Positions 3-29,195 of a stretch of DNA of 38,985 nucleotides are shown here, piece after piece (positions within the stretch are counted from its first letter, which is position 1; every line of letters begins with the position of its first letter). A model generated the notes under the pieces. That model was not told where the DNA came from. It was given only the letters and a program-made list of their open reading frames with translations, and ran no database searches. The stretch lies in NCBI GenBank assembly GCA_964373225.1, contig CAYJTW010000003.1, positions 1 to 38,985 of the forward strand, given 5' to 3'. The translations under genes and the position numbers were made by a program. The DNA comes from an uncultured Candidatus Peribacteria bacterium (GTDB lineage Bacteria > Patescibacteriota > Gracilibacteria > Peribacterales > Peribacteraceae).

Positions 3-3000
3 GCAAACTGCGACGTGAAGAGTTCGGTCACCGGTGTGCTCTCCTGCGGGACGGATGCGGGAACCACCTATGGCTTCGGCCAAGGACTCTCGATTAGCAG
101 CAGCATCGTCACGCTGAATTCGACGATCACGGGATCGCTCGTCCGCTTCACCACGCTCTCCGGTTCTACCGTCCGCGCCCGTGACTACCTCTCCTCCTCC
201 GGCGTCCTCGTCCTCAAGAAGTACGCCGGTTCCTCTACGGGGAACATCCTCATCGTGGACACCAGCGGTCTCGTCTACGATGCCACCTACAAGCGGGTGG
301 GGATCAAGACGACGACTCCCAAAACCCAACTGGAAGTGCAGGGGACGATGTCGGGTAATGCCCTCTACGTCGCCCGCGCGTTCTCCGGCGCCGGACTCAC
401 CGGTTGTTGGGGCACCGCAAATAAGCTGGTGTGGAGCGGTTCCACATCGCGATTCGCCTGTGCCGCCGATCAGGGTGGCGGAGGCATAACTGTCAAAGTG
501 AAGACGGCGGATGAGACCGTGAATAACTCCTCGACATTGCAGGATGACGATCATCTCAGTTTCGCCATCGGCGCGAGTGAAAACTGGGCATACCTCATCG
601 ATTTTGTTCTCAACCAGGCGAGTGGCACCCCGGGATTCAAAGCGGCAGTGACTGCGCCGGCAAGCGCTGCATGCATAGCATCACTGTACCAGGCAGGTGG
701 AACTTCTACGACAACGTCCAGTACCTGCGGCGCCGATCTTGTCCACAGTATGCTATTCTCCGGAGATTTCACGGATCGTATTTACGGATCGGTCCGCAAC
801 AGTACCAATGCCGGCACTGTGCAATTCCAGTGGGCACAGAATCAGGCTAATGCCAGCGATACAAAGATTTACGCCGGCAGCTCGCTTCTGGCATTCAAGA
901 CCGTCGGCTCCGACCTTGCCGAAATCTACGCATCGCACGAACCCCTCATCCCGGGGACGGTCGTGACGCTCGATTCCACACTCCCTGCGGGAGTCCAGCG
1001 CAGCACTACTCCATACGATTCGCATCTCATGGGAGTCATTTCGACCAATCCGGGTCTTATGATGGGTGATATCCCATCCAAAGGTACCGTCGTCTTCCTT
1101 GCGCTCGCCGGGCGAGTGCCGGTCCTCGTCTCCACGGAGAACGGTTCGATCCAACCCGGTGATTACCTGACGTCGTCCTCACAGCCCGGCATCGCGATGC
1201 GCATGACGAAACCCGGTATGTCGATCGGACAGGCGATGGAAGGCTACAGTGAAACAGGGATCGGAGCGGTCATGACATTCATCAAGAATACCCACGTCGA
1301 CGGGTTTGATGAGACGGGTACGCTCCTCAGTGGCACGGGAGACATGCTCACCATACATGGGAATCTGACCGTCACCGGCGCGCTCCTTGTGCACGGCGGC
1401 GCACGCTTCGGTTCCGGCGTGACGATCGCATCGCGCGCGACATCATCCGGACAGAATCTCTTCATCGTGACGTCCAATGTCGGCGGTTCAGGAAACACGG
1501 TCTTCCGCGTGACGGCCGCCGGAGACGTGTCGGCCGATGGCGCCTTCACTGGCGGCGGGGCGGATTATGCGGAGTGGTTCACGACGACCGACACCAACCT
1601 CAAATTTGGCGAAGCGGTCTGCGTGGACATCACGCGTCCCAACAGCGTCAAGCGGTGCACGCGTTCGGGCGATCCCGATATCGTCGGTCTCGTCTCGAGC
1701 CGCGAGCAAGCGGCCTTCATCGGCAACAAATTCAGCGGCGCGGAAGATCTGCCGGTTCCCGGCACCGTTCTCGTTGGTCTCCTCGGGCAGCTCTCCGGCG
1801 ATATCGTCGTCGAATCCGATGCATCCAGCGCAAATTCTTCCTCGGGCTCGGGAATCATCCGCCCCGGCGATCCGCTCGCCGCCGGCACCATTCCCGGGAC
1901 GCTCCGGAAGGCGAACCTCGGCGAATCGACGGTCGGTGTTGCGCTCGAGGGACTCGAGGAGGGTCGTGCTATGCGCAAAGTCCTGATCTCGCGCAAGAAC
2001 CAGTCGCTGACGGTCGAAGCCGTCGAGCAGCACACGCTGGAATCCATCAAGGCGATGAAGATCGAGGATGAAGTGCAGTTGATGGTCCAGGACACGCTCA
2101 ACCGTTTGCAGGTGAGCCAGACCATCCGGGACGAAGTGGCGCGGCAGATGGTTGCCGTTGCGCCGCTCAGCGACCGCATTACCGCGCTCGAAGAGAAGAT
2201 CGCAGCCATGTCCGGAGCGTTAAAGGCACCGGAGAGCGAAAAGGGTCAAGAGGACGAGAATTCCATCACCGCGAAAGACGGTCGCTTCACCGGTGATCTC
2301 TACGTGGACGGTATCTTCCACATGCGAGATCTCTTCGTGCCCAACGGCATGCATATCGATGGTGCCCTGCAGACGGGATCCCTCAACGTGCAATCCGATG
2401 CGACGTTCAACGGAGCGCTCACACTCAACGGAACGCTCAACGTCACGAACGGAATCACCTTTGGCTCCGGCTCGATCCTTGAGGCCCACAGTTTGATCGT
2501 CCGCCATGCGCTCAAAGTCCTGGGCTCCATCACCATCGACGGCCTCGCGCAGTTCCTCGGCGACGTCGAGATCGCGGGGCAGTTGACACTCAGTAACCGC
2601 CAGGCGGGGTTCGCCGATATTCCTGCGCGCGGGACGGGCATCACTGTGTACTTCGATCGGCCGCTCACGCGTTTGCCGGTCATCACGGTCACTCCGGTCA
2701 GTCGGATCGGTGTGGAATGGTGGACCGAGCCGGCGACGATGACAGGCTTCCGAATCACGGTTGCCGAACCGCTCGTTGGGCCGGTGCGCTTCGGCTGGAC
2801 GGCCATCGCCGTGGACGGCGCTCACGCCGCTGCGGATACATCACTCAAGATTCCGTTCCTCCCCGTTGATGACGCCTCGTCTTCATCTGGATCGCTGGCC
2901 CTGAGCCCCTCGACCATGCTCGGGATAAACTCCACCGAAGGGTCCGTGTCCTCAGATTCATCGTCGCAGCCAACTATAGCGCCTTCGTCCGATTCATCCT

Positions 3001-3449
3001 CCAGCGCACCCATAACGTTGATACCGTTCCCGGTAGATTCCACAGACGTTCCGATCAGTACGAACGATGCATGGAACGGGTGCATCCGCGGCAATGTCCT
3101 GATCCGCGGCGACGGTCAGCCGGTCAACTGCTGGCGCTACCGCGATGGCTACGTGTGGGAGCATCCGGATCTTCCTATTTCGTTCACATACAACACGTCC
3201 GTCTCTCCCGCTATTCTGATCATTCCTGATGGATATGTGATCACGAAAGAGGGGACCGACGTGCCTCCTTCGTCTTCCAGTGCGTCATCGGAAAGTTCGT
3301 CGTCAGAGTCCGCAGAAAGTTCCGCATCGAGCGTGAGCAGTGAATCCAGTGCAGCATCGGCGAGTTCTTCCCGTGAAAGCAACGAAGCCCCCCCTCCGCC
3401 ACCGGCGCCGGATCCGGTCCCTCCAGCCCCCCCGGCAGATGGTCAATAA
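3..3449 (+). CDS. Giant extracellular tail-fibre-like / adhesin-like protein (5' partial, continues upstream of the window)
   Basis: The frame is open from base 3, with no stop before the GTG at 15. Motifs seen: VGIKTTTPKTQLEVQG (tail-fibre type); two modules starting GSDLAEIY (aa ~298) and GGADYAEWF (aa ~515), each followed by ...PGD.L......PG......G.A.EG. From memory these resemble the peptidase G2 / intramolecular-chaperone autoproteolytic domain of phage appendage proteins. Also a heptad coiled coil (aa ~665-735), G/N/T-rich beta-helix-like repeats, and Ser-rich and Pro-rich (PPPPPAPDPVPPAPP) C-terminal tracts. Confidence 0.8.
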   Translation, partial: ANCDVKSSVTGVLSCGTDAGTTYGFGQGLSISSSIVTLNSTITGSLVRFTTLSGSTVRARDYLSSSGVLVLKKYAGSSTGNILIVDTSGLVYDATYKRVGIKTTTPKTQLEVQGTMSGNALYVARAFSGAGLTGCWGTANKLVWSGSTSRFACAADQGGGGITVKVKTADETVNNSSTLQDDDHLSFAIGASENWAYLIDFVLNQASGTPGFKAAVTAPASAACIASLYQAGGTSTTTSSTCGADLVHSMLFSGDFTDRIYGSVRNSTNAGTVQFQWAQNQANASDTKIYAGSSLLAFKTVGSDLAEIYASHEPLIPGTVVTLDSTLPAGVQRSTTPYDSHLMGVISTNPGLMMGDIPSKGTVVFLALAGRVPVLVSTENGSIQPGDYLTSSSQPGIAMRMTKPGMSIGQAMEGYSETGIGAVMTFIKNTHVDGFDETGTLLSGTGDMLTIHGNLTVTGALLVHGGARFGSGVTIASRATSSGQNLFIVTSNVGGSGNTVFRVTAAGDVSADGAFTGGGADYAEWFTTTDTNLKFGEAVCVDITRPNSVKRCTRSGDPDIVGLVSSREQAAFIGNKFSGAEDLPVPGTVLVGLLGQLSGDIVVESDASSANSSSGSGIIRPGDPLAAGTIPGTLRKANLGESTVGVALEGLEEGRAMRKVLISRKNQSLTVEAVEQHTLESIKAMKIEDEVQLMVQDTLNRLQVSQTIRDEVARQMVAVAPLSDRITALEEKIAAMSGALKAPESEKGQEDENSITAKDGRFTGDLYVDGIFHMRDLFVPNGMHIDGALQTGSLNVQSDATFNGALTLNGTLNVTNGITFGSGSILEAHSLIVRHALKVLGSITIDGLAQFLGDVEIAGQLTLSNRQAGFADIPARGTGITVYFDRPLTRLPVITVTPVSRIGVEWWTEPATMTGFRITVAEPLVGPVRFGWTAIAVDGAHAAADTSLKIPFLPVDDASSSSGSLALSPSTMLGINSTEGSVSSDSSSQPTIAPSSDSSSSAPITLIPFPVDSTDVPISTNDAWNGCIRGNVLIRGDGQPVNCWRYRDGYVWEHPDLPISFTYNTSVSPAILIIPDGYVITKEGTDVPPSSSSASSESSSSESAESSASSVSSESSAASASSSRESNEAPPPPPAPDPVPPAPPADGQ

Positions 3450-3454
3450 GCGGA

Positions 3455-3478
3455 ATGTTCCACGACCCCGTGGAACAT
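3455..3478 (+). terminator. Candidate terminator hairpin after the surface-protein gene
   Basis: Perfect 9-bp inverted repeat ATGTTCCAC / GTGGAACAT with a 6-nt loop, beginning 6 nt after the TAA stop (3447-3449). The downstream sequence contains Ts but is not a canonical U-tract. Confidence 0.35.
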
Positions 3479-3575
3479 CCGTTCATGTTTATACGAAGCC
3501 AAAGTTTTGATGTCGCGACAACAATCTTTCCTGTGCCTCTTGCCATGCTTTTGAGAGCAGGAATAGGCTGCTGCC

Positions 3576-3857
3576 ATGTCTGCAAAAAAGGGAATCACGC
3601 TTTGGGATGTCTTGGCTCATATTCGGGGCCTCAGCGTTCGTTTCGACGCCGTGGACAAGCGTTTCGATGGCTTGGGCACGCGTATCGACGGGATTGATGG
3701 TCGATTGGATCGTATGGAAGGTAAGATAGATGGTATAGATCAGCGTGTGCGCCGTATCGAAGACGTTCTGCAGCCCTCATTCACTCGTCTTCAAATTACG
3801 GTTCGTGATCACGGTAGTCGCATCCGCAAAATTGAACGGAAGTTGGTCCTCGCATGA
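3576..3857 (+). CDS. Small coiled-coil protein with heptad xxxR(F/I/L)DG repeats, function unknown
   Basis: 93-aa ORF. VDKRFDG LGTRIDG IDGRLDR MEGKIDG IDQRVRR shows strict 7-residue periodicity. It lies directly downstream of the giant surface-protein gene on the same strand. Confidence 0.55.
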   Translation: MSAKKGITLWDVLAHIRGLSVRFDAVDKRFDGLGTRIDGIDGRLDRMEGKIDGIDQRVRRIEDVLQPSFTRLQITVRDHGSRIRKIERKLVLA

Positions 3858-4305: not shown

Positions 4306-5067
4306 ATGAAGGGAGTACTCATCTGTGGTGGCTCCGGAACAAGACTTCGTCCACTGACGGAGATCACCAATAAAAGTCTGCTTCCGGTCTATGACCGGCC
4401 GCTGATCGAATATCCGCTCGGCAAACTCGTCGATGCGGGCATCACCGATATCGTTGTGATTTCCGGCAACGAGCACATCGACCAGATGGCGTCGTATCTG
4501 GGGAGCGGCGGACGGTTTGGATGCAAGTTCACGTACAGAGTGCAGGACAAGCCCCAGGGAATCGCGCAGGCACTCGGTATGGCGGAGGAATTCGCCGAAG
4601 GCCACAGCGTCTGCGCGATTCTCGGCGACAATATCTATTTCGACGATCTCTCGCCCGCGATCACATCGTTCAAGAAAGGGGGCCACGTGTTCCTCAAAGA
4701 GGTTCCCGATGCGGAGAGATTTGGAGTAGCGTCCCTCGCTACGCCCCGCACCCTTCTGCGGAAAGGTGCGAGGGCTACTCGGGATGACAATCGCGTTCAG
4801 GTTGAATCAATTGAAGAGAAACCCAAGAAGCCCAAGAGCAATTTCGCCGTCACGGGATGCTACGTCTACGATCACCGGTGCTTCGAGATCATCAGGAATC
4901 TGAAGCCCTCCGCGCGCGGGGAGTTCGAAATCACCGATGTCAGCCGCTGGTATCTGGAGCACGGCGAACTGACCGCGAGCGTGCTCAAAGACGAATGGAT
5001 TGATGCGGGGACGTTCGAGAGTCTCTTCAAAGCCGCGCAGTTGGTGCGGGAAAAGAAATCAGTATAA
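4306..5067 (+). CDS. Sugar-1-phosphate nucleotidyltransferase, short RmlA-like (glucose-1-phosphate thymidylyltransferase family)
   Basis: MKGVLICGGSGTRLRPLT (G-x-G-T-R-L signature), LGDNI, EEKPKKPKSNFAVTGCYVY. The ATG at 4306 is preferred over the GTG at 4291. Sugar and nucleotide specificity are inferred only from the neighbouring dTDP-sugar genes. Confidence 0.85.
   Translation: MKGVLICGGSGTRLRPLTEITNKSLLPVYDRPLIEYPLGKLVDAGITDIVVISGNEHIDQMASYLGSGGRFGCKFTYRVQDKPQGIAQALGMAEEFAEGHSVCAILGDNIYFDDLSPAITSFKKGGHVFLKEVPDAERFGVASLATPRTLLRKGARATRDDNRVQVESIEEKPKKPKSNFAVTGCYVYDHRCFEIIRNLKPSARGEFEITDVSRWYLEHGELTASVLKDEWIDAGTFESLFKAAQLVREKKSV
4724..4780. repeat. 57-nt bulged palindrome lying in-frame inside the RmlA-like CDS
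   Basis: GAGTAGC-GTC-CCTCGC (4724-4739) pairs with GCGAGGGCTACTC (4768-4780), giving 13 bp with a 3-nt bulge. An inner CCGCA/TGCGG stem is also present. Translated as GVASLATPRTLLRKGARATRD. Confidence 0.7.
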
Positions 5068-6150
5068 CGCCGCATACCGCTCTGCAATCCCGTCCCAGTC
5101 AAATTTCCGCGCATGCTCCACCGCCGCATCGGCCAGTTGCGTGCGGAATTTTTCGTCTTCGAGAAACATCCCCAGCACTCCGGCGGTCAGTTCCGGATTA
5201 TCGGGTTCTGTCAGCAGTCCCGTGACGCCGTCATGGACGACTTCGGGGATTCCTCCAATCTCCGTGCCGAGCACCGCGCAGCCGGCCGCTTGTGCTTCGA
5301 TGAAGACATTGCCCAGCGCTTCGGACCGCGAGAGCGCGCAGAAGATTTCGGCTTCGGCGTATTCTTGATACACAGATTGTCCGGTAAGAGCTCCGCAGAA
5401 CGTCACATGGGGTACGTTTCCATATTTCCTGCGTAAGTCGCCAAAAAGAGATCCGCTTCCGACAATATGAAGGGTTGCTGACGGATGCTGGTCATGAACG
5501 GAAACAAATGCTGCCAAGAGAGTATCCACACCTTTCATCTTCTCCAATCTTCCGACGAAGAGAATTCTCCCGGGGACTTTCTTCACCTCGCCGCACACTT
5601 TCCGGATCTCATCGTATGGAATGCCGTTCGGGATCACGATCGCATCCCGTCGTCCGAGTTTTGCTGCCTGATCTGCCAGTACTTTGCTGATGGCGGTAAT
5701 CACGTCCGGCGTTCTCATGATGTGATGGCGCAAAAAGTTCCGGTTCGTCGTCTGCAGCGTCAAAATCTGCTTCGCGTGAGGAACGACCAGGGTGCACATG
5801 TGGAGCGCGGCCCCGGCGAAGGTTTCGAGCACGGCATGGAGCACATCAGGCTTAAGCTTCCGCGCCGCGAACGGCGCGAGGAAGGGGTAGAGCCATTTAT
5901 CGAACGGAATGCCGAAGCCGACACGGATCACCGGCACCCCCCGGCCCACCTCACCCCCCGGCCCCCTCTCCGTGCCGCACGGAGAGGGGGAGAGGACATC
6001 CCGACGTGGAAGATCTCCCCGTAATTTTGCGGTGATGATCGTGATATCGAAGCGATCGCAGAGTCTCAGCGCCACTTCTTCGGCACATGCCTCCGCGCCG
6101 CTGCGAAACGGCGTGAGGAAGGCCGAGAAGATGACGATGCGACGGTTCAA
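5059..6150 (-). CDS. Glycosyltransferase family 4 (GT-B, glycosyl transferases group 1)
   Basis: 363 aa. C-terminal domain motifs LFVGRLEKMKGVD, SRSEALGNVFIEAQAAGCAVLGTEIGGIPEVV...G. The only in-frame start is TTG at 6150. Confidence 0.9.
   Translation of the reverse strand: MNRRIVIFSAFLTPFRSGAEACAEEVALRLCDRFDITIITAKLRGDLPRRDVLSPSPCGTERGPGGEVGRGVPVIRVGFGIPFDKWLYPFLAPFAARKLKPDVLHAVLETFAGAALHMCTLVVPHAKQILTLQTTNRNFLRHHIMRTPDVITAISKVLADQAAKLGRRDAIVIPNGIPYDEIRKVCGEVKKVPGRILFVGRLEKMKGVDTLLAAFVSVHDQHPSATLHIVGSGSLFGDLRRKYGNVPHVTFCGALTGQSVYQEYAEAEIFCALSRSEALGNVFIEAQAAGCAVLGTEIGGIPEVVHDGVTGLLTEPDNPELTAGVLGMFLEDEKFRTQLADAAVEHARKFDWDGIAERYAALY
5935..5990. repeat. In-CDS direct repeats plus a perfect hairpin
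   Basis: CACCCCCCGGCCC occurs at 5935-5947 and 5952-5964. A perfect 13-bp stem CCCCCTCTCCGTG / CACGGAGAGGGGG with a 3-nt loop lies at 5962-5990. On the minus strand it is translated as ...SPSPCGTERGPGGEVGRGVP... inside the GT4. Confidence 0.8.
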
Positions 6151-6180
6151 TGGAGAATGCAGAACGAAGAATGGAGAATT
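6149..6180. repeat. Left 32-nt terminal inverted repeat of the four-helix-bundle cassette
   Basis: AATGGAGAATGCAGAACGAAGAATGGAGAATT. Built from four tandem heptamers (GGAGAAT GCAGAAC GAAGAAT GGAGAAT). By hand alignment, 27/32 identical to the reverse complement of 6571-6602. Confidence 0.8.
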
Positions 6181-6535
6181 ATAAGAGATTCTTTTTTGCT
6201 GTATTTATGCTGGCAACCAATAGGGAAATGATCTCATTCAGTTCAAGCAATAACGATTGCGCTTCTTTCACGAATATTGGAGTTGTATCTCGGATAAGAC
6301 GGAGCCAAAAATCTGATTCGTTACCTTCTTTCAAAGCGATAGAAAGCTTTGAAATAAAATCGGGTTTGCTTTGTGCATGAGCTGCTTCTGCAACATTTGC
6401 CCCAATGCTGGTGCCTGATTTCAGTAATTGCTTGCTCAGAATGTATTCTTTTTCCTTCTGCATTTTTCTACAGAAATGAACAATCTTTATACTGAATGCA
6501 TAGGACTTGTCCCGAAGAGGATTTGGCTTCGCCAT
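6179..6535 (-). CDS. Four-helix-bundle protein (23S rRNA intervening-sequence protein / DGR Avd-like family)
   Basis: 118 aa. SYAFSIKIV.FC......EY.LSKQLLKSGTSIGANVAEA......DFISKLSIALKE..ES.FWL.L is the typical signature of this family. Confidence 0.85.
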   Translation of the reverse strand: MAKPNPLRDKSYAFSIKIVHFCRKMQKEKEYILSKQLLKSGTSIGANVAEAAHAQSKPDFISKLSIALKEGNESDFWLRLIRDTTPIFVKEAQSLLLELNEIISLLVASINTAKKNLL

Positions 6536-6570
6536 AGCTTATTACTGTCGAATATTCCCTATCAAAAGTC

Positions 6571-6602
6571 AATTCTCCGTTCTTCATTCTCCGTTCTCCG
6601 TT
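6571..6602. repeat. Right 32-nt terminal inverted repeat of the four-helix-bundle cassette
   Basis: AATTCTCCGTTCTTCATTCTCCGTTCTCCGTT, with heptamer periodicity. It overlaps the last codons (..ITENGE) and the stop codon of the GT4 gene 6584..7729. Confidence 0.8.
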
Positions 6603-7729
6603 ATCTTGAATAATTTCAAATATTTCTCACCCACAACGTCCCAGCTGAATCTCTCGTCAATTCTCCTTCTCGCTGCCTCACCCATCATCCTCCGCTTCGC
6701 GGGATCTTCGATCAATCGCCGCAGATGCGCCGCCAGAGCTTCACGATCACCGGCGGGGAACAGGAATCCCGAGACGCCGTTCTGGATCAAAAACGCATTG
6801 CCGCCAACATCAGACGCAACGCACGCGCACCCGCTCGCCATCGCTTCCATCAGCGCGTTGCTCAGCCCTTCGCTGTGGCTGGGGAGAACGAAGATATCGG
6901 TCTTTGCGAGGATCTCGGGAATATCGGAACGAAGGCCGGTGAACGTCACCTGATGCTCGTACTGCTTCACGAGCGGATGTTCCTCCTTATACCAGCCGAC
7001 GACCTGTATGGTGATGTCAGGGAAAGTATTTTTGAGCGGCACGGCGGCGGCCAGAAAGTCGTCGACGCCCTTTACCGATTCAAGTCTGCCAACGTATGTG
7101 ATAGTGACGGGTTTCGGGTTTCGGGTTTCGGGTTCTGTACTCGCAACCCATAACCCGTAACCCGAAACGTCTATCCCCGTCGGTATCACTTCCGATTTTT
7201 TCCATACACCCATCCGCTTCAGGAGTTTTTCCGGTTGTGGATGATAGAAGACGATGCGCTCCGCGCAGAGCATGACCGCCCACCCGAGCGTCCACGCGTA
7301 GATCGCTGCGGCGGTCTTCGGAATCCACCCGCGCGGCCACCACGTGATGCCGACGAGCGTGTCGGTCAGCAGGATCGGGCGGTACCCGCGCAGCCGCAGC
7401 GCGATCACGGAGAACGAACTCCAGAAGAGGATTTTATTGCAGACAATCAGGTCGGGACGTTCATCGCGGATGATGCGGCGCACGAATCCTGAAAATCCCA
7501 ACGCGATGCCATAGTTCCACGGATCGGGCAGATAGAAATCTTTCTTCCGATACATCGTGAGAGAATCGGATAGAACATCCTTGGACTCTTTGGAATCCTT
7601 TTTCTCGCCCATGCAGGCGACGACCACGCGATACCCGAGCCGCTGCCACAGCTCAGCCAGTTTCACCGTGCTGACCATCCAGCGATGGGGTTCTTTCCAG
7701 TAGGGGCTGATGAGGAGGATGGTCGACAT
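6584..7729 (-). CDS. Glycosyltransferase family 4 (GT-B)
   Basis: 381 aa. TYVGRLESVKGVD, LPSHSEGLSNALMEAMASGCACVASDVGGNAFLIQNGVSGFL (E-x7-E region). ATG at 7729. Confidence 0.9.
   Translation of the reverse strand: MSTILLISPYWKEPHRWMVSTVKLAELWQRLGYRVVVACMGEKKDSKESKDVLSDSLTMYRKKDFYLPDPWNYGIALGFSGFVRRIIRDERPDLIVCNKILFWSSFSVIALRLRGYRPILLTDTLVGITWWPRGWIPKTAAAIYAWTLGWAVMLCAERIVFYHPQPEKLLKRMGVWKKSEVIPTGIDVSGYGLWVASTEPETRNPKPVTITYVGRLESVKGVDDFLAAAVPLKNTFPDITIQVVGWYKEEHPLVKQYEHQVTFTGLRSDIPEILAKTDIFVLPSHSEGLSNALMEAMASGCACVASDVGGNAFLIQNGVSGFLFPAGDREALAAHLRRLIEDPAKRRMMGEAARRRIDERFSWDVVGEKYLKLFKITENGE
7106..7171. repeat. 66-nt hairpin with heptamer-repeat arms, in-frame inside the GT4 CDS
   Basis: The left arm is GAC(GGGTTTC)x3GGGTT (7106-7134). 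The right arm is AACCCATAACCCGTAACCCGAAACGTC (7145-7171), whose reverse complement is GACGTTTCGGGTTACGGGTTATGGGTT. The loop is 10 nt. Exactly 22 codons, translated as DVSGYGLWVASTEPETRNPKPV. Confidence 0.85.
7578..7606. repeat. In-CDS copy of the 9-mer-array element found at 8293-8329
   Basis: TCCTTGGACTCTTTGGAATC (7578-7597) is 19/20 identical to 8293-8312, and both are followed by TTTTTCTC. Translated on the minus strand as EKKDSKESKD. Confidence 0.75.
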
Positions 7730-7735
7730 GAAAAG

Positions 7736-7798
7736 GAGGCAAGAGAGGCAAGGGAGGCAGAAGAGGCAAGAGAGGCAAGGGAGTGAAAGGAGGCAAAG
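7736..7798. repeat. Seven tandem 9-mers (GAGGCAAGR consensus) in an intergenic spacer
   Basis: GAGGCAAGA GAGGCAAGG GAGGCAGAA GAGGCAAGA GAGGCAAGG GAGTGAAAG GAGGCAAAG. They fill most of the gap between the DUF2304 stop (7807) and the GT4 start (7729). Confidence 0.85.
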
Positions 7799-7806
7799 GA
7801 ATGAGT

Positions 7807-8193
7807 TTACTCCTTTGTCTCCTTTTCTTCTTTTTCAAGCCCCGCTTCCCGCAGCGCCAACTCTCTTACGATCCTGGCATGCCGCTGTTCGAGCTCCTCC
7901 AGGCGGATGATCATGTAGAAGACGATGAAGAAGAGGATGCCGAGGAAAGTGAAGATCACGGCGTTCTCGCGGTTGGCAATGCCCGTGACGGTCGAGAGGT
8001 AGGTGAGGAACGGCGGGAACATCGCGATCGCCGCGATCGCCCCCCAGAAGATTGTCCAAAAACACGCTTCCCACACCGTCTTCTTCTGTCGCATCACCAG
8101 GTTCCACGCGTACACGATCGCGACAATCGCGATCAGTGGAGCGACGATTTGGTAGGGGGTAAGCGTCATAGGAACGTGAGAGGTAGTGTACAT
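7807..8193 (-). CDS. DUF2304-like small membrane protein (usual partner of GtrB/DPM1-like GT2 enzymes)
   Basis: Three predicted TM helices followed by a charged C-terminal helix (EELEQRHARIVRELALRE). It sits immediately downstream of a GT2 gene, as is typical for DUF2304. The start may instead be the ATG at 8169. Confidence 0.7.
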   Translation of the reverse strand: MYTTSHVPMTLTPYQIVAPLIAIVAIVYAWNLVMRQKKTVWEACFWTIFWGAIAAIAMFPPFLTYLSTVTGIANRENAVIFTFLGILFFIVFYMIIRLEELEQRHARIVRELALREAGLEKEEKETKE

Positions 8194-11824: not shown

Positions 11825-11891
11825 CTCGTTCACTCGTTCATTCGTTAACTCGTGTTTATGACGTACGAATTAACCAGTTAACGAATTAACG
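11825..11891. repeat. Inverted repeat with octamer-repeat arms in a divergent intergenic region (possible operator)
   Basis: The left arm is CTCGTTCA CTCGTTCA TTCGTTAA CTCGTG. The reverse complement of the right arm is CGTTAA TTCGTTAA CTGGTTAA TTCGTA. The perfect 11-bp core is ATTCGTTAACT (11840-11850) / AGTTAACGAAT (11876-11886). Confidence 0.7.
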
Positions 11892-18038: not shown

Positions 18039-18323
18039 TCACCCAAACAGATTTTCATGGGTGTCAGTTGCATAGAACGTGATTTTCTCATTGCCGTCGG
18101 CGTCGATGCTCAATTTGTACAACAACAGCCAGTCACCTTCAATGTGACAGTCGCGCATGCCAGCCCATTCCCCCCGCAATCCGTGATCTTTGTATTGCAG
18201 AGGCAACAATATTCCTTCAATCAACATATCCATCACAGCATTAAGTTTCGCAACGTCCCTTCCGGACCGCTGTATTTTTGCGTAATTGCGTCGGAAACGT
18301 TTTGCGAGTTTTGCAGATCTCAT
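18039..18323 (-). CDS. yafQ: Type II toxin, YafQ family mRNA interferase (RelE/ParE superfamily)
   Basis: 94 aa. YKDHGLRGEWAGMRDCHIEGDWLLLYKL...THENLFG aligns closely with the E. coli YafQ pattern YKDH.L.G.W.G.RD.H.E.DW.L.YKL....GTH..LFG. Confidence 0.9.
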   Translation of the reverse strand: MRSAKLAKRFRRNYAKIQRSGRDVAKLNAVMDMLIEGILLPLQYKDHGLRGEWAGMRDCHIEGDWLLLYKLSIDADGNEKITFYATDTHENLFG

Positions 18324-18601
18324 TTCAATTTACGTAAGGCTCTGAACATCGATTTTTTGTCCCGATATTCCCGTACACCTATTCCGAGATCAGTCTCGCG
18401 AATATCTTTCTGGAGTTGTGTATTCGGAATTTCCGATTGCTGGACCGGTGTCGGAGCAAAGGGAAGACCACCGAATCGCTTGATCTCCATGTACAGCAGA
18501 TAAATCGCCTGTGAAGGCTTGATGCCCTGGGTTCTCAGGATCAGTTCTGCTTCTTTTCGGAGCTTCGGATCGATGCGCTGTTGGATGCGTCCGGATGTCA
18601 T
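18320..18601 (-). CDS. dinJ: Type II antitoxin, DinJ/RelB family
   Basis: 93 aa from the ATG at 18601 (MTSGRIQQRIDPKLRKEAELIL...GLPF), with a ribbon-helix-helix-type N-terminus like DinJ. ATGA overlap with the toxin start. The ORF-track N-terminal extension to 18754 overlaps the neighbouring gene and is rejected. Confidence 0.85.
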   Translation of the reverse strand: MTSGRIQQRIDPKLRKEAELILRTQGIKPSQAIYLLYMEIKRFGGLPFAPTPVQQSEIPNTQLQKDIRETDLGIGVREYRDKKSMFRALRKLK

Positions 18602-18629
18602 AGGAAGGGGTGGAGTCAAATGTACTCCA

Positions 18630-18658
18630 ATTGTACTACTTCCTTTCCTCGACGTCAA
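18630..18658 (-). promoter_or_regulatory. Sigma70-like promoter with candidate operator repeats for dinJ-yafQ
   Basis: The minus strand reads TTGACG-17 nt-TACAAT, ending 28 nt before the dinJ ATG. Direct repeats TGTACT (plus strand 18621-18626 and 18632-18637, 11-nt period) overlap the -10 element. Confidence 0.45.
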
Positions 18659-18660
18659 CA

Positions 18661-19737
18661 TCAGAAGATGATCTTCCTGAGCAAGTAACTGATCGGCGCC
18701 GTGATGAGAATGGCAACAGCCTTGGCAGTCAGATATGACATTCCCATCGCCCACAGCGCAGTCGCAAGGAGGACGCAGAGCACGGCGATGATCGCGTACA
18801 GAATCACGTACTGCTGAAACGGCACATTGCGGTGCCCTCCCCAGCGGCGATGCTGCAGCCAGAGCATGGCGGCGCCCGCGAAGACACTCGAGAGCACGAA
18901 GCCCGTGAGGATGTTCGCATGTCCGAGCGAGACGATCATCCAGAGTGAGAGCAGATCAATTGCGGCGCCGGTGATTCCCCGCAGCAGGAACGGACCAAGA
19001 TTCATGAAGAGTGCGGAGAGGTGCGGCCAGCGGATGCGCAGCACCGAGAAAAATGCTTCGTTGATTTCGTGGAAGCCGAGGTTTGATGCTCCGCGCCGGC
19101 GATTCACAAACAATGTCGGTACTTCGCCGAACCGCAGGCCCGCACAATGGATCTGCCACGCGAATTCCGAGAGGACGACGTAGCCCGTCGCGTCGATTTT
19201 GGCAAAATCAATCGCCTGAAGCGCGCGGCGCGTGTAGGCGCGGAAGCCGTTGGTGTAATCGTTGATCGGAATCCCGAGCACCAGGCGCGCGAAACGGTTG
19301 GCAAGCCTGCTGAAGAGAATCCTCTTGAGACCCCACTCGCGGATTTCGCTCCCGGCTATATAGCGCGAGCCGATCACGCAGTCACATCCTTCTGCGAGCT
19401 TGCCGCGGACGAGCGCAACTTCTTCCGGTCTGTGCGAGAAATCAGCGTCCATCTCCATGATCGTCTCGTATTCATCAGTGAGTCCCATCCTGCACCCCTC
19501 CATCACCGCCGACCCGCGTCCGCCTTTGCCTTGGCGCACCAGTAATTTCAATTTCTCCCCGTGACGTGCCTGCGCACCCCGCACCACCTCCGCCGTTCCG
19601 TCCGGCGACGAGTCATCAACGACGAGCACATCAATTCCATCATAGAGCTCGAACAGCCGGTCAATCAGCTGCACAATATTTTCCCGTTCGTTGAACGAGG
19701 GAATGATGATGAGAGTTTTATTGAGACCCATGGGCAC
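18661..19737 (-). CDS. Polyprenol/dolichol-phosphate mannose synthase-like GT2 fused to a GtrA-like membrane domain
   Basis: LIIIPSFNERENI, VVDDSSPDGT and MDADFSH in the N-terminal GT2 domain. The C-terminal 120 aa or so contain four hydrophobic helices (GtrA-like). The start is GTG 19737 or ATG 19731. Confidence 0.85.
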   Translation of the reverse strand: MPMGLNKTLIIIPSFNERENIVQLIDRLFELYDGIDVLVVDDSSPDGTAEVVRGAQARHGEKLKLLVRQGKGGRGSAVMEGCRMGLTDEYETIMEMDADFSHRPEEVALVRGKLAEGCDCVIGSRYIAGSEIREWGLKRILFSRLANRFARLVLGIPINDYTNGFRAYTRRALQAIDFAKIDATGYVVLSEFAWQIHCAGLRFGEVPTLFVNRRRGASNLGFHEINEAFFSVLRIRWPHLSALFMNLGPFLLRGITGAAIDLLSLWMIVSLGHANILTGFVLSSVFAGAAMLWLQHRRWGGHRNVPFQQYVILYAIIAVLCVLLATALWAMGMSYLTAKAVAILITAPISYLLRKIIF

Positions 19738-22158: not shown

Positions 22159-22485
22159 TTAAATGCATTTTTTCAATGCCTCCAGCAGTCCGGGCAAATC
22201 TTCTTGATATGTCTTCCATAAAATTTCCAGATCCACTTCAAAGTAATGACGGATGAGCTTGTTCCGCATACTAATTATTTTGGAAAAGGGAAATTCTGCA
22301 TGCTTTTTCCTGAATTCGGGGGTCAGCTTTCCAGTCGCTTCTCCCAAAATTTCAAATAATCGCACGCATGCGTGCATACGCAGAGGATCCTGCACGAATT
22401 GTGCATACGTGTGATCTGCGAGGATGTTCTGGATTTCGCCGATCGCGTCGATCATATGCCGGACGAAAACTTCGTCGGTGTTCAT
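22159..22485 (-). CDS. hepT: HepT-type HEPN toxin (DUF86)
   Basis: 108 aa. The MRNKLIRHYFEVD motif fits HEPN Rx4-6H. ATGA-type 4-nt overlap with the upstream MNT gene. Confidence 0.8.
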   Translation of the reverse strand: MNTDEVFVRHMIDAIGEIQNILADHTYAQFVQDPLRMHACVRLFEILGEATGKLTPEFRKKHAEFPFSKIISMRNKLIRHYFEVDLEILWKTYQEDLPGLLEALKKCI

Positions 22486-22787
22486 GCTGGTACTTCAAAG
22501 AGCGGATCAGCTTCTCTCATGACATCATTACGGAAGTACCTACTCAAGCTTTTTGGTGTGCAGAGGTCGACATGTCGACCAAGTGCTTTTGAGAGTTGTT
22601 CTTCAATATCTATTAATGCAAACATGCTGATCGGTTCTTTAAATTCGATGAGTAGGTCCACGTCACTGGTTTTCTTCGCCGTGCCATGTAAATGTGATCC
22701 AAAAAGAGAAATACGGCGGATATTCCCCCGATAAGGAGATTTTTTCAGCGCTACCTGCAAATGCCGTTGAATATCCTGCTTTTTCAC
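22482..22787 (-). CDS. mntA: MntA-type minimal nucleotidyltransferase antitoxin
   Basis: 101 aa. LFGSHLHGTAKKTSDVDLLIEF (G-S-x10-D-x-D nucleotidyltransferase motif). GTG start. Confidence 0.8.
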   Translation of the reverse strand: MKKQDIQRHLQVALKKSPYRGNIRRISLFGSHLHGTAKKTSDVDLLIEFKEPISMFALIDIEEQLSKALGRHVDLCTPKSLSRYFRNDVMREADPLFEVPA

Positions 22788-29120: not shown

Positions 29121-29195
29121 TGGAGCCGCCCACGGGAATTGAACCCGTGACCCCATCCTTACCATGGATGTGCTCTACCTCTGAGCTAGGGCGGC
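29121..29195 (-). tRNA. tRNA-Thr (anticodon GGT), CCA encoded
   Basis: The hand-folded cloverleaf is GCCGCCC-TA-GCTC-AGAGGTA-GAGC-A-CATCC-ATGGTAA-GGATG-GGGTC-ACGGG-TTCAATT-CCCGT-GGGCGGC-T-CCA. All four stems are Watson-Crick paired. Confidence 0.92.

Follow-up and report, generated by a model that had tools for sequence, protein, structure and literature searches.

The stretch of DNA analysed here (38,985 bases, referred to in its entirety as the window) comes from Candidatus Peribacteria and includes an envelope-glycosylation operon in which a cassette of 454 bp (6149-6602) lies between two co-directional genes for GT4-family glycosyltransferases. The cassette is AT-rich and bounded by inverted repeats, and its sole open reading frame (ORF) of note (6179-6535, minus strand, 118 aa, intact) encodes a four-helix-bundle (4HB) protein of the S23p family, known from intervening sequences (IVSs) of 23S rRNA genes. 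Given that the 4HB gene and both GT4 genes are all on the minus strand, the ORF is sense-oriented to the host transcript. Read along the minus strand, the cassette and its two host genes are arranged as follows.

6584..7729, minus strand: upstream host gene, a GT4 glycosyltransferase of 381 aa, with its tail and stop codon from the cassette arm
6571..6602, minus strand: 5' arm, upstream of the 4HB gene, reading AACGGAG AACGGAG AATGAAG AACGGAG AATT on the coding strand
6536..6570, minus strand: leader of 35 nt from the 5' arm to the ATG, GACTTTTGATAGGGAATATTCGACAGTAATAAGCT, with no Shine-Dalgarno motif detected
6179..6535, minus strand: 4HB gene (S23p / 23S_rRNA_IVP / TIGR02436 family), its stop codon TAA (6179-6181) overlapping the 3' arm
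6149..6180, minus strand: 3' arm, reading AATTCTCC ATTCTTC GTTCTGC ATTCTCC ATT on the coding strand, with 27/32 positions matching the reverse-complemented 5' arm
5059..6150, minus strand: downstream host gene, a GT4 glycosyltransferase of 363 aa, with a TTG start at the arm edge

The original prediction, made from the letters of this DNA, had singled out an AT-rich segment between 32-nt imperfect inverted repeats built from tandem heptamers, and this outline stands. The GC content is 0.385-0.425 over 6100-6600 compared with about 0.52-0.68 on either side, and that of the cassette as a whole is about 0.39 against 0.57 for the genome. A repeat finder returned the same ends, with arms of 32 nt each at 6149-6180 and 6571-6602 that are 27/32 (84%) complementary and 390 nt apart, and Tandem Repeats Finder placed a period-7 array in both of them, AATGGAG x4.4 at 6149-6179 and TTCTCCG x4.3 at 6573-6602. 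A degenerate 32-nt pattern of the arms has only two matches in the 38,985 bases, both of them the cassette arms, while none is expected from shuffled sequences. Read directly from the sequence, the 5' arm contains five phased AAY triplets. The arms also run into the neighbouring genes: the stop codon TGA (6584-6586) and the last five codons of the upstream GT4 lie inside the 5' arm, giving a tail ..LFK-ITENGE* in which (T)ENGE is arm-encoded, and both T's of the TTG start of the downstream GT4 (6148-6150) are the final bases of the 3' arm.

Assignment of the 118-aa protein to the 23S-IVS/Avd family was upheld, with the Pfam search returning the anticipated profile PF05635 (23S_rRNA_IVP) at an E value of 1.7e-23 and 83.3 bits (cut-off 33.8), over residues 9-107 of the protein and positions 7-105 of the 106 in the profile. 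The match to TIGR02436 is stronger still (E 2.8e-28, 98.3 bits, cut-off 24). The nearest solved structure is PDB 2RLD (E 2.3e-27), and both 2RLD and 2GSC, which are crystal entries of this family, were deposited with five chains. The window protein is basic, with a pI of 9.55. To our knowledge, PF05635 proteins have no known function apart from Avd of diversity-generating retroelements (DGRs).

The remark that neither an rRNA nor a reverse transcriptase is found nearby holds as well. The sole Rfam match in the window is a tRNA (29124-29195), with no rRNA, and no reverse transcriptase is encoded among the ORFs tested between 15 and 14106, which include NDK, nucleotidyltransferase, DUF2304, GT2, a PMT_2-like protein and several ORFs without a Pfam match. 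A scan of the cassette found no sigma-70-like promoter upstream of the 4HB ORF and no terminator. The cassette encodes no transposase or recombinase, no target-site duplication is seen at its junctions in the window, and none of the PADLOC anti-phage defence families was matched by it.

Comparison with orthologous GT4-GT4 junctions, which had been named as a check together with the search for empty sites, identifies the window cassette as an insertion relative to its syntenic relatives. The GT4 homologues with a named source come from Candidatus Peribacteria or Peregrinibacteria, and synteny was found at three loci, whose genes run GT2, DUF2304, GT4, GT4, nucleotidyltransferase, NDK. In L088, both GT4 genes overlap by ATGA, which represents an empty site. 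In L086/L087, 74 nt separate the GT4 genes and form a hairpin without cargo, built of hexamer repeats (TTTGGG / CCCTAA-like; 3622-3697 in L086). In L085, the closest relative by GT4, an unrelated 158-aa ORF (1969-2445) occupies the junction; it has no Pfam match and no heptamer arms, and its N-terminus is hydrophobic and, by eye, signal-peptide-like. The GT4-GT4 junction is a recurrent insertion point. Besides, NDK is followed in L086 by a different 4HB cassette, whose arms are of the AGTGAAA type (6005-6122).

The relatives also bear on the proposal that the arms remodelled the termini of both host genes. Orthologues of the upstream GT4 end in ..LFEAL*, ..LFSSQ* or ..LFEKFSVFKG*, compared with ..LFK-ITENGE* in the window, and orthologues of the downstream GT4 start with ATG, compared with TTG. 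These differences indicate that the cassette reshaped both host gene ends, as had been proposed. Excising exactly 6149-6602 gives AAG-ATG-AAC, with an ATG start for the downstream GT4, yet fuses both GT4 genes in frame without a stop codon. Because of this fusion, and with the empty site 25% divergent, the insertion in the window cannot be delimited to the base.

A further locus on a short contig, L089, shares the insertion, with a 4HB gene that is 78% identical at the amino acid level, the same GT4-GT4 junction and the same heptamer unit. Between the two 4HB genes, nonsynonymous divergence (dN) is 0.16 and synonymous divergence (dS) is saturated, and the 3' arm is identical at 27/32 positions compared with 11/32 at four-fold degenerate sites (Fisher p 9e-5). 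Given the low dN alongside a saturated dS, and the identity of the 3' arm above that of four-fold degenerate sites, the protein and the 3' array are under constraint by purifying selection. The insertion is old rather than recent, given that both loci have the cassette, that synonymous divergence has reached saturation and that L089 retains only a decayed 5' arm. The leader (6536..6570 in the window) is mostly deleted in the L089 cassette. Downstream of the L089 cassette (560-600), the second GT4 has no canonical start, with only CTG, ATT or ATC in frame, and in both the window and L089 its translation may rely on coupling to the 4HB ORF, which terminates about 30 nt upstream. We also observed that the low GC content of the cassette (about 0.39) has not been ameliorated despite the saturated synonymous sites (window 6179-6535 compared with L089 204-560).

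PF05635 proteins are numerous, with 9,817 representatives of 50%-identity clusters at E values up to 1e-3 in a single-sequence search. We collected relatives at 80 loci from reference genomes, 16 from viral contigs and 80 from metagenomes, and scored arms as the best ungapped match between the 150 nt upstream of the 4HB ORF and the reverse complement of the 150 nt downstream. The count covered 160 distinct 4HB ORFs with both flanks, and 271 ORFs of the first-set loci served as controls. An inverted-repeat score of at least 14 was reached by 113 of the 160 relatives, with a best internal period of 7 in 104 of these and of 8 in 6, while two of the 271 control ORFs reached this score, one of them with period 7. 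Period-7 inverted arms accordingly occur at 65% of the relatives, from more than 10 phyla, compared with 0.4% of the control ORFs. According to record titles, the hosts in the genome collection include Acidobacteriota, Bacteroidota, Clostridia, Patescibacteria, Pseudomonadota, Nitratifractor and Desulfobulbia, together with Opitutales, Thermoguttaceae, Fusobacteriota, Fibrobacter, Cloacimonadales and Anaerolineae. Carriers that can be cultivated include Bacteroides oleiciplenus YIT 12058 (L058), Flavobacterium johnsoniae CI04 (L052), Propionigenium maris DSM 9537 and Nostoc punctiforme PCC 73102, on its plasmid pNPUN02 (L190, 59135-59506). A conserved 23S motif was found at none of 186 loci. 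The arms are typically 26-31 nt long and whole elements 410-622 nt. Of the 118 inverted array pairs counted over all loci, 88 surround a 4HB match; other long pairs contain decayed sequence, or belong to two separate elements with host genes in between.

The heptamer units differ from element to element, as was already apparent from the first relatives opened, with GGACAAT/ATTGTCC in L004 and TCTCAAT downstream of the gene in L003, where the contig is cut upstream. When consensus units were phased for the 81 elements with arrays on both sides, they converged on A-R-T-K-N-N-N. Position 1 is A in 77/81 units, position 2 is A in 64 and G in 17, position 3 is T in 80/81 and position 4 is T in 48 and G in 29 of 81, followed by three variable positions that are element-specific and common to both arms of one element. 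The 5' unit is the exact reverse complement of the 3' unit in 47/81 elements and differs from it by one mismatch in another 22/81, compared with 2% and 9%, respectively, for shuffled partners. For the longest phased run of A-R-T triplets, the commonest length is five in 5' arms (35/81) and four or five in 3' arms, compared with one to two in shuffled flanks, although four units per array are about as common as five. The layout of the family is four to five heptamers A-R-T-K-N-N-N, a short leader, a basic S23p/PF05635 gene of about 118 aa and the same heptamers reverse-complemented.

The 4HB gene is co-oriented with its neighbour in 211/249 pairs (85%), compared with 194/278 other pairs at the same loci (70%, p 5e-5). 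In many relatives, the 5' array touches the ATG, and taxa that rely on Shine-Dalgarno motifs have one separating arm and ATG. An internal promoter was considered as a general feature on account of a TTGAC(A/T) noticed by eye before the ATG in the window, L003, L004 and L090; it was rejected, given that no sigma-70-like site was found in the window and that the array abutting the ATG leaves no room for a promoter in many relatives.

Two loci of this collection show unusual arrangements. In L173 (965-1490), a 134-aa ORF without a Pfam match lies between AATTAGG-type inverted arrays where the 4HB gene is expected, and may be an alternative cargo. In L063, a metagenome-assembled genome (MAG) of Opitutales, the region 1300-3740 holds at least eight AATTAGG/CCTAATT arrays, along with a decayed-looking 4HB fragment (..YRDLIVWQKGIDLVTKIY..) and a tRNA-like stretch just upstream of an intact cassette; it looks like a graveyard of elements.

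Mobility is most evident in Nostoc, which accounts for 15 of the 25 plasmid records with a relative. The Nostoc plasmid cassettes carry 4.5 copies of AATTCAA or AATTCGC on each side, and the arms of the cassette in N. punctiforme pNPUN02 are perfect over 33 nt. This cassette recurs at 85-88% identity in unrelated contexts, and the homology is limited by the outer ends of the 5' and 3' arrays. Arm-bounded cassettes of this family thus move as a unit. It is in these Nostoc copies that terminal inverted repeats (TIRs) were found at the exact ends of the mobile unit, the window containing one copy only. Filled and intact sites could be compared in two Nostoc cases only (L194 and L197), where the cassette has taken the place of about 300 nt of host gene, a 138-aa ORF in one case and a DNA cytosine methyltransferase in the other, with no target duplication. 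The left junction in the methyltransferase contains one heptamer copy (GGA-CAATTCG-ACATT), while in the 138-aa ORF the similarity between host and arm at this junction is approximate only, as judged by eye. Three more loci (L191, L192 and L195) were examined as clean empty sites and set aside, as they are without the cassette but also without the interrupted host gene.

The same arms also delimit elements that lack the gene. Other records from the Nostoc search match only both arms, 222-680 nt apart, and in Nostoc MS1 (L196) an ORF-less mini element splits a TPR gene, with the arm region giving TAA to the upstream half and GGAG-ATG to the downstream half. In Peribacteria, the DUF2304 stop codon lies inside an arm in both of the mini elements found (L088 2423-2490 and L085 696-794). 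Repeated mini copies in a Eubacterium limosum MAG (L033) share internal sequence and carry the unit of the nearby full cassette, and in L186 mini elements flank a Fic-family gene and adjoin a 4HB cassette. Regarding orientation relative to host genes, many mini elements cannot be oriented, their AATT core being palindromic, and the few that can are mixed.

The two arms had been expected to pair in the minus-strand transcript better than shuffled controls, and folding agrees with this. In RNA 6612..6140, the arms are paired in both the minimum free energy and the centroid folds, at -126.6 kcal/mol with a z-score of -3.47, and none of 100 shuffles was as good; the two arms joined by a tetraloop fold at -37.5 kcal/mol, with a z-score of -8.9.

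Considering these results together, we lean towards reading 6149-6602 as an IVS-type selfish cassette residing in an operon, an intact member of a discrete and horizontally spreading family. The element of the same type that lies in helix 45 of 23S rRNA is what is called an IVS. The cassette would be transcribed as part of the host operon, given that it has no terminator or promoter of its own and that co-orientation is enriched, and its arms would pair into a duplex of 26-30 bp enclosing the ORF. By analogy with the Coxiella IVS, RNase III may cut this duplex, separating the GT4 messages and releasing the 4HB RNA, and it is on this analogy that we infer excision of the cassette from the mRNA. 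The insertion would have been tolerated because it is non-polar. More speculatively, the pentamer-forming 4HB protein probably binds the arrays.

Several observations weigh against this interpretation. Around 30% of the relatives have no detectable arms within 150 nt. In L089, the 5' arm has decayed and the RNA folds no better than shuffled sequences (z-score -0.09), while the gene and the 3' array remain, so that a complete stem can be dispensed with. In the window element, the antisense stem folds slightly better than the sense one (-40.6 compared with -37.5 kcal/mol), and arm mismatches in 104 elements show no wobble bias, with 35 G.U compared with 40 A.C pairs in the sense RNA (26 and 19, respectively, in the earlier first set); taken together, these two results give no sign that pairing is selected in the sense RNA. 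Moreover, if a duplex were all that is needed, neither period 7 nor the conserved A-R-T would be accounted for. The triplet and the strictness of the period point instead to a factor that reads the sequence rather than to mere pairing, and the 4HB pentamer, whose five subunits would correspond to five triplets, is the obvious candidate.

It is possible, if on the unlikely side, that the arms act at the DNA level, as recombination or integration ends of a small mobile element (TIRs resembling those of miniature inverted-repeat transposable elements, MITEs, or of REPINs, doublets of repetitive extragenic palindromes), and that the RNA stem is incidental. Homology between copies in differing contexts stops exactly at the arms, ORF-less mini elements share these arms (L196, L033, L088, L085 and L186), and the arm mismatches are strand-symmetric, all of which is consistent with such a role, as are the two Nostoc cassettes that replace about 300 nt of a host gene, with one heptamer copy at the left junction in the methyltransferase. 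However, no transposase or recombinase is encoded and no target-site duplication is seen, the enriched co-orientation with neighbours is needless for a purely DNA-level element, and in rRNA the same arms are demonstrably a substrate of RNase III. The two readings overlap, since the selfish IVS-type cassette requires some DNA mobility in any case, and the dispute concerns what selection keeps the arms for. A more doubtful proposal is that the arrays are binding sites of the cassette's own 4HB pentamer, with one A-R-T triplet per subunit in a TRAP-like manner, through which the protein would control how its own RNA or DNA is translated, stabilised or propagated and act in trans on the mini elements. 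An invariant triplet with a fixed period of 7 and a variable spacer is what such sites could look like, and phased triplets most often run to five in 5' arms (35/81) and to four or five in 3' arms; 2RLD and 2GSC have five chains each, Avd is pentameric and binds RNA (10.1101/2023.10.23.563531), and the window protein has a pI of 9.55. The 3' array of L089 is conserved without its partner arm, and the L033 mini elements carry the unit of the full cassette in the same locus. Against this, Avd contacts a structured stem-loop rather than repeated triplets, the two arms differ in sequence when single-stranded (ART compared with AYT), four units are about as common as five, and the Coxiella protein is reported as probably not made (PMC4990558).

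Two further explanations deserve far less weight. A host-evolved intergenic hairpin that flanks a horizontally acquired gene by coincidence seems very improbable: other hairpins built from repeats do occur in the window (7108-7168, 7732-7834 and 11825-11891) and the L086 junction holds the cargo-less hexamer hairpin, but with period-7 arms at 65% of 160 relatives compared with 0.4% of controls, a conserved unit consensus and arms that travel with the gene, coincidence is effectively refuted. Hardly credible is a DGR remnant, in which Avd would have been left behind after loss of the reverse transcriptase and of the template and variable repeats (TR/VR). The family is related to Avd (PMC10053308), and the Avd equivalog model NF033474 does match the window protein with an E value of 2e-4, but at 21.5 bits it remains below its cut-off of 80, no reverse transcriptase was found among the tested ORFs, and the arms and architecture match those of an IVS and not of a DGR.

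Beyond the selfish IVS-type cassette that we favour, a wider scheme may be put forward as a tentative and rather improbable conjecture. S23p/4HB cassettes would be the autonomous members of a very large, cross-phylum mobile family with 7-nt-array ends, whose pentamer reads five A-R-T triplets, one per subunit, and acts in trans on ORF-less mini elements; rRNA IVSs would then be copies that landed in rRNA helices, and Avd a domesticated descendant. Apart from this scheme, the survey shows that the IVS architecture, with heptamer-array arms around a 4HB gene, is the normal packaging of 4HB genes outside rRNA, and a package that moves as a unit and has miniature derivatives places the IVS among the landing sites of a general family of cassettes. 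For genome annotation, odd short C-terminal tails, non-ATG starts and split genes beside genes annotated as 'four helix bundle protein' can be by-products of the arms.

The window contains other repeats among its glycosylation genes. Cargo-less inverted heptamer arrays (CGGGTTT x3.9 and AACCCGT x3.4) lie in frame in the coding region of the upstream GT4 (7108-7168) and encode a variable inter-domain linker (..STEPETRNPKPV..), which is missing or of another form in orthologues. In the downstream GT4, a GC-rich insert at 5935-5995 consists of two copies of CACCCCCCGGCCC and a perfect 14-nt palindrome (CCCCCTCTCCGTGC / GCACGGAGAGGGGG) and encodes SPSPCGTERGPGGEVGRG. The L085 orthologue of this gene has an almost identical peptide, SPSPRGAERGPGGEV, at another position, which suggests that the insert is a small palindromic element capable of inserting in frame. 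Tandem repeats also occupy the operon junctions 7732-7834 and 11825-11891, with period 9 (AAAGGAGGC, 7.7 copies), period 8 (TTTTCTCC) and a period-8 pair (CTCGTTCA / ACGAATTA), and spacers built from repeats seem to be a habit of this genome. Two low-GC islands (18039-18754 and 22159-22787) hold toxin-antitoxin pairs among the glycosylation genes, namely a YafQ toxin with a RelB antitoxin and a HepT ribonuclease with an MNT-type nucleotidyltransferase.

Among known systems, the likeness to TRAP is a functional analogy only, in that a conserved triplet with a variable spacer is repeated about as often as a ring has subunits; the protein fold is unrelated, arrays of the window class also come as complementary pairs, and binding itself is putative. 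MITEs and REPINs resemble the family more closely, given that inverted ends define the element and that short ORF-less derivatives share the arms of the full-length form, several per locus. They differ in that the 'autonomous' partner here encodes only a helical bundle of about 120 aa and no recognisable transposase domain (RAYT/HUH or DDE), that no target-site duplication is seen and that the ends are 7-nt arrays whose variable part differs by element.

Heptanucleotide repeats of cyanobacteria, the short tandemly repeated repetitive (STRR) sequences, were reportedly described by Mazel et al. in 1990. STRRs are tandem 7-nt units that are abundant in Nostocales and intergenic; structured RNA helices tolerate them as well, and they also occur in those of RNase P RNA. 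They have been described as repeats without an associated gene, the classical units being CCCCAGT, TTGGTCA and CAACAGT. The 4HB cassettes of Nostoc are likewise flanked by tandem 7-nt arrays (AATTCGC and AATTCAA), although the classical STRR units do not fit A-R-T-K, and we found no paper tying STRRs to 4HB genes. Nor did we find a paper on the heptamer-arm architecture outside rRNA, in a search that covered older work incompletely and leaves an earlier description possible.

Avd and the 4HB proteins share a four-helix-bundle fold family whose members are basic, form pentamers and bind RNA. One study presents Avd as a pentameric barrel of positive charge, 'similar to S23 ribosomal proteins', and has it bind a stem-loop in the DGR RNA (10.1101/2023.10.23.563531). 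The window cassette differs from a DGR in having no TR/VR pair and, among the ORFs tested between 15 and 14106, no reverse transcriptase, and heptamer arms are no described feature of DGRs.

The closest counterparts are the IVSs of rRNA. These elements and their S23p ORFs have been known since about 1990, and IVSs of 23S rRNA with an S23p ORF have also been reported for Leptospira, Brucella and Haemophilus. In Coxiella, the IVS in helix 45 of 23S rRNA is 428-444 nt long, with a GC content below that of the genome and a 28-bp stem of terminal inverted repeats, and three to four tandem copies of GACAGAT, the number differing between strains, precede the sense-oriented S23p ORF, whose product is probably not made (Warrier et al. 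2016, PMC4990558). The RNase III cut was mapped within the stem, where the first repeat begins, and IVSs are defined as elements of rRNA genes, with their origin and function called unclear (PMC4990558). We noted that GACAGAT, rotated to GATGACA, fits positions 2-4 of the A-R-T-K consensus. The likeness to the rRNA IVS is therefore stronger than the original prediction had it: the window cassette is of similar size (454 nt compared with 428-444 nt), has a GC content below that of its host, ends in inverted repeats forming a stem (about 28-32 bp in the two elements), has tandem-heptamer arms and carries a single sense-oriented PF05635 ORF within what would be a host transcript. The two elements differ in their hosts, that of the window being the junction of two protein-coding operon genes rather than an rRNA helix, and in that the window arms double as stop and start signals of the host genes. 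RNase III excision has been shown for Coxiella and is putative for the window element, and the Coxiella ORF seems to be decaying, whereas that of the window is under purifying selection. The window locus is one member of a large, phylum-spanning class that we have so far found described only for its rRNA-resident members.

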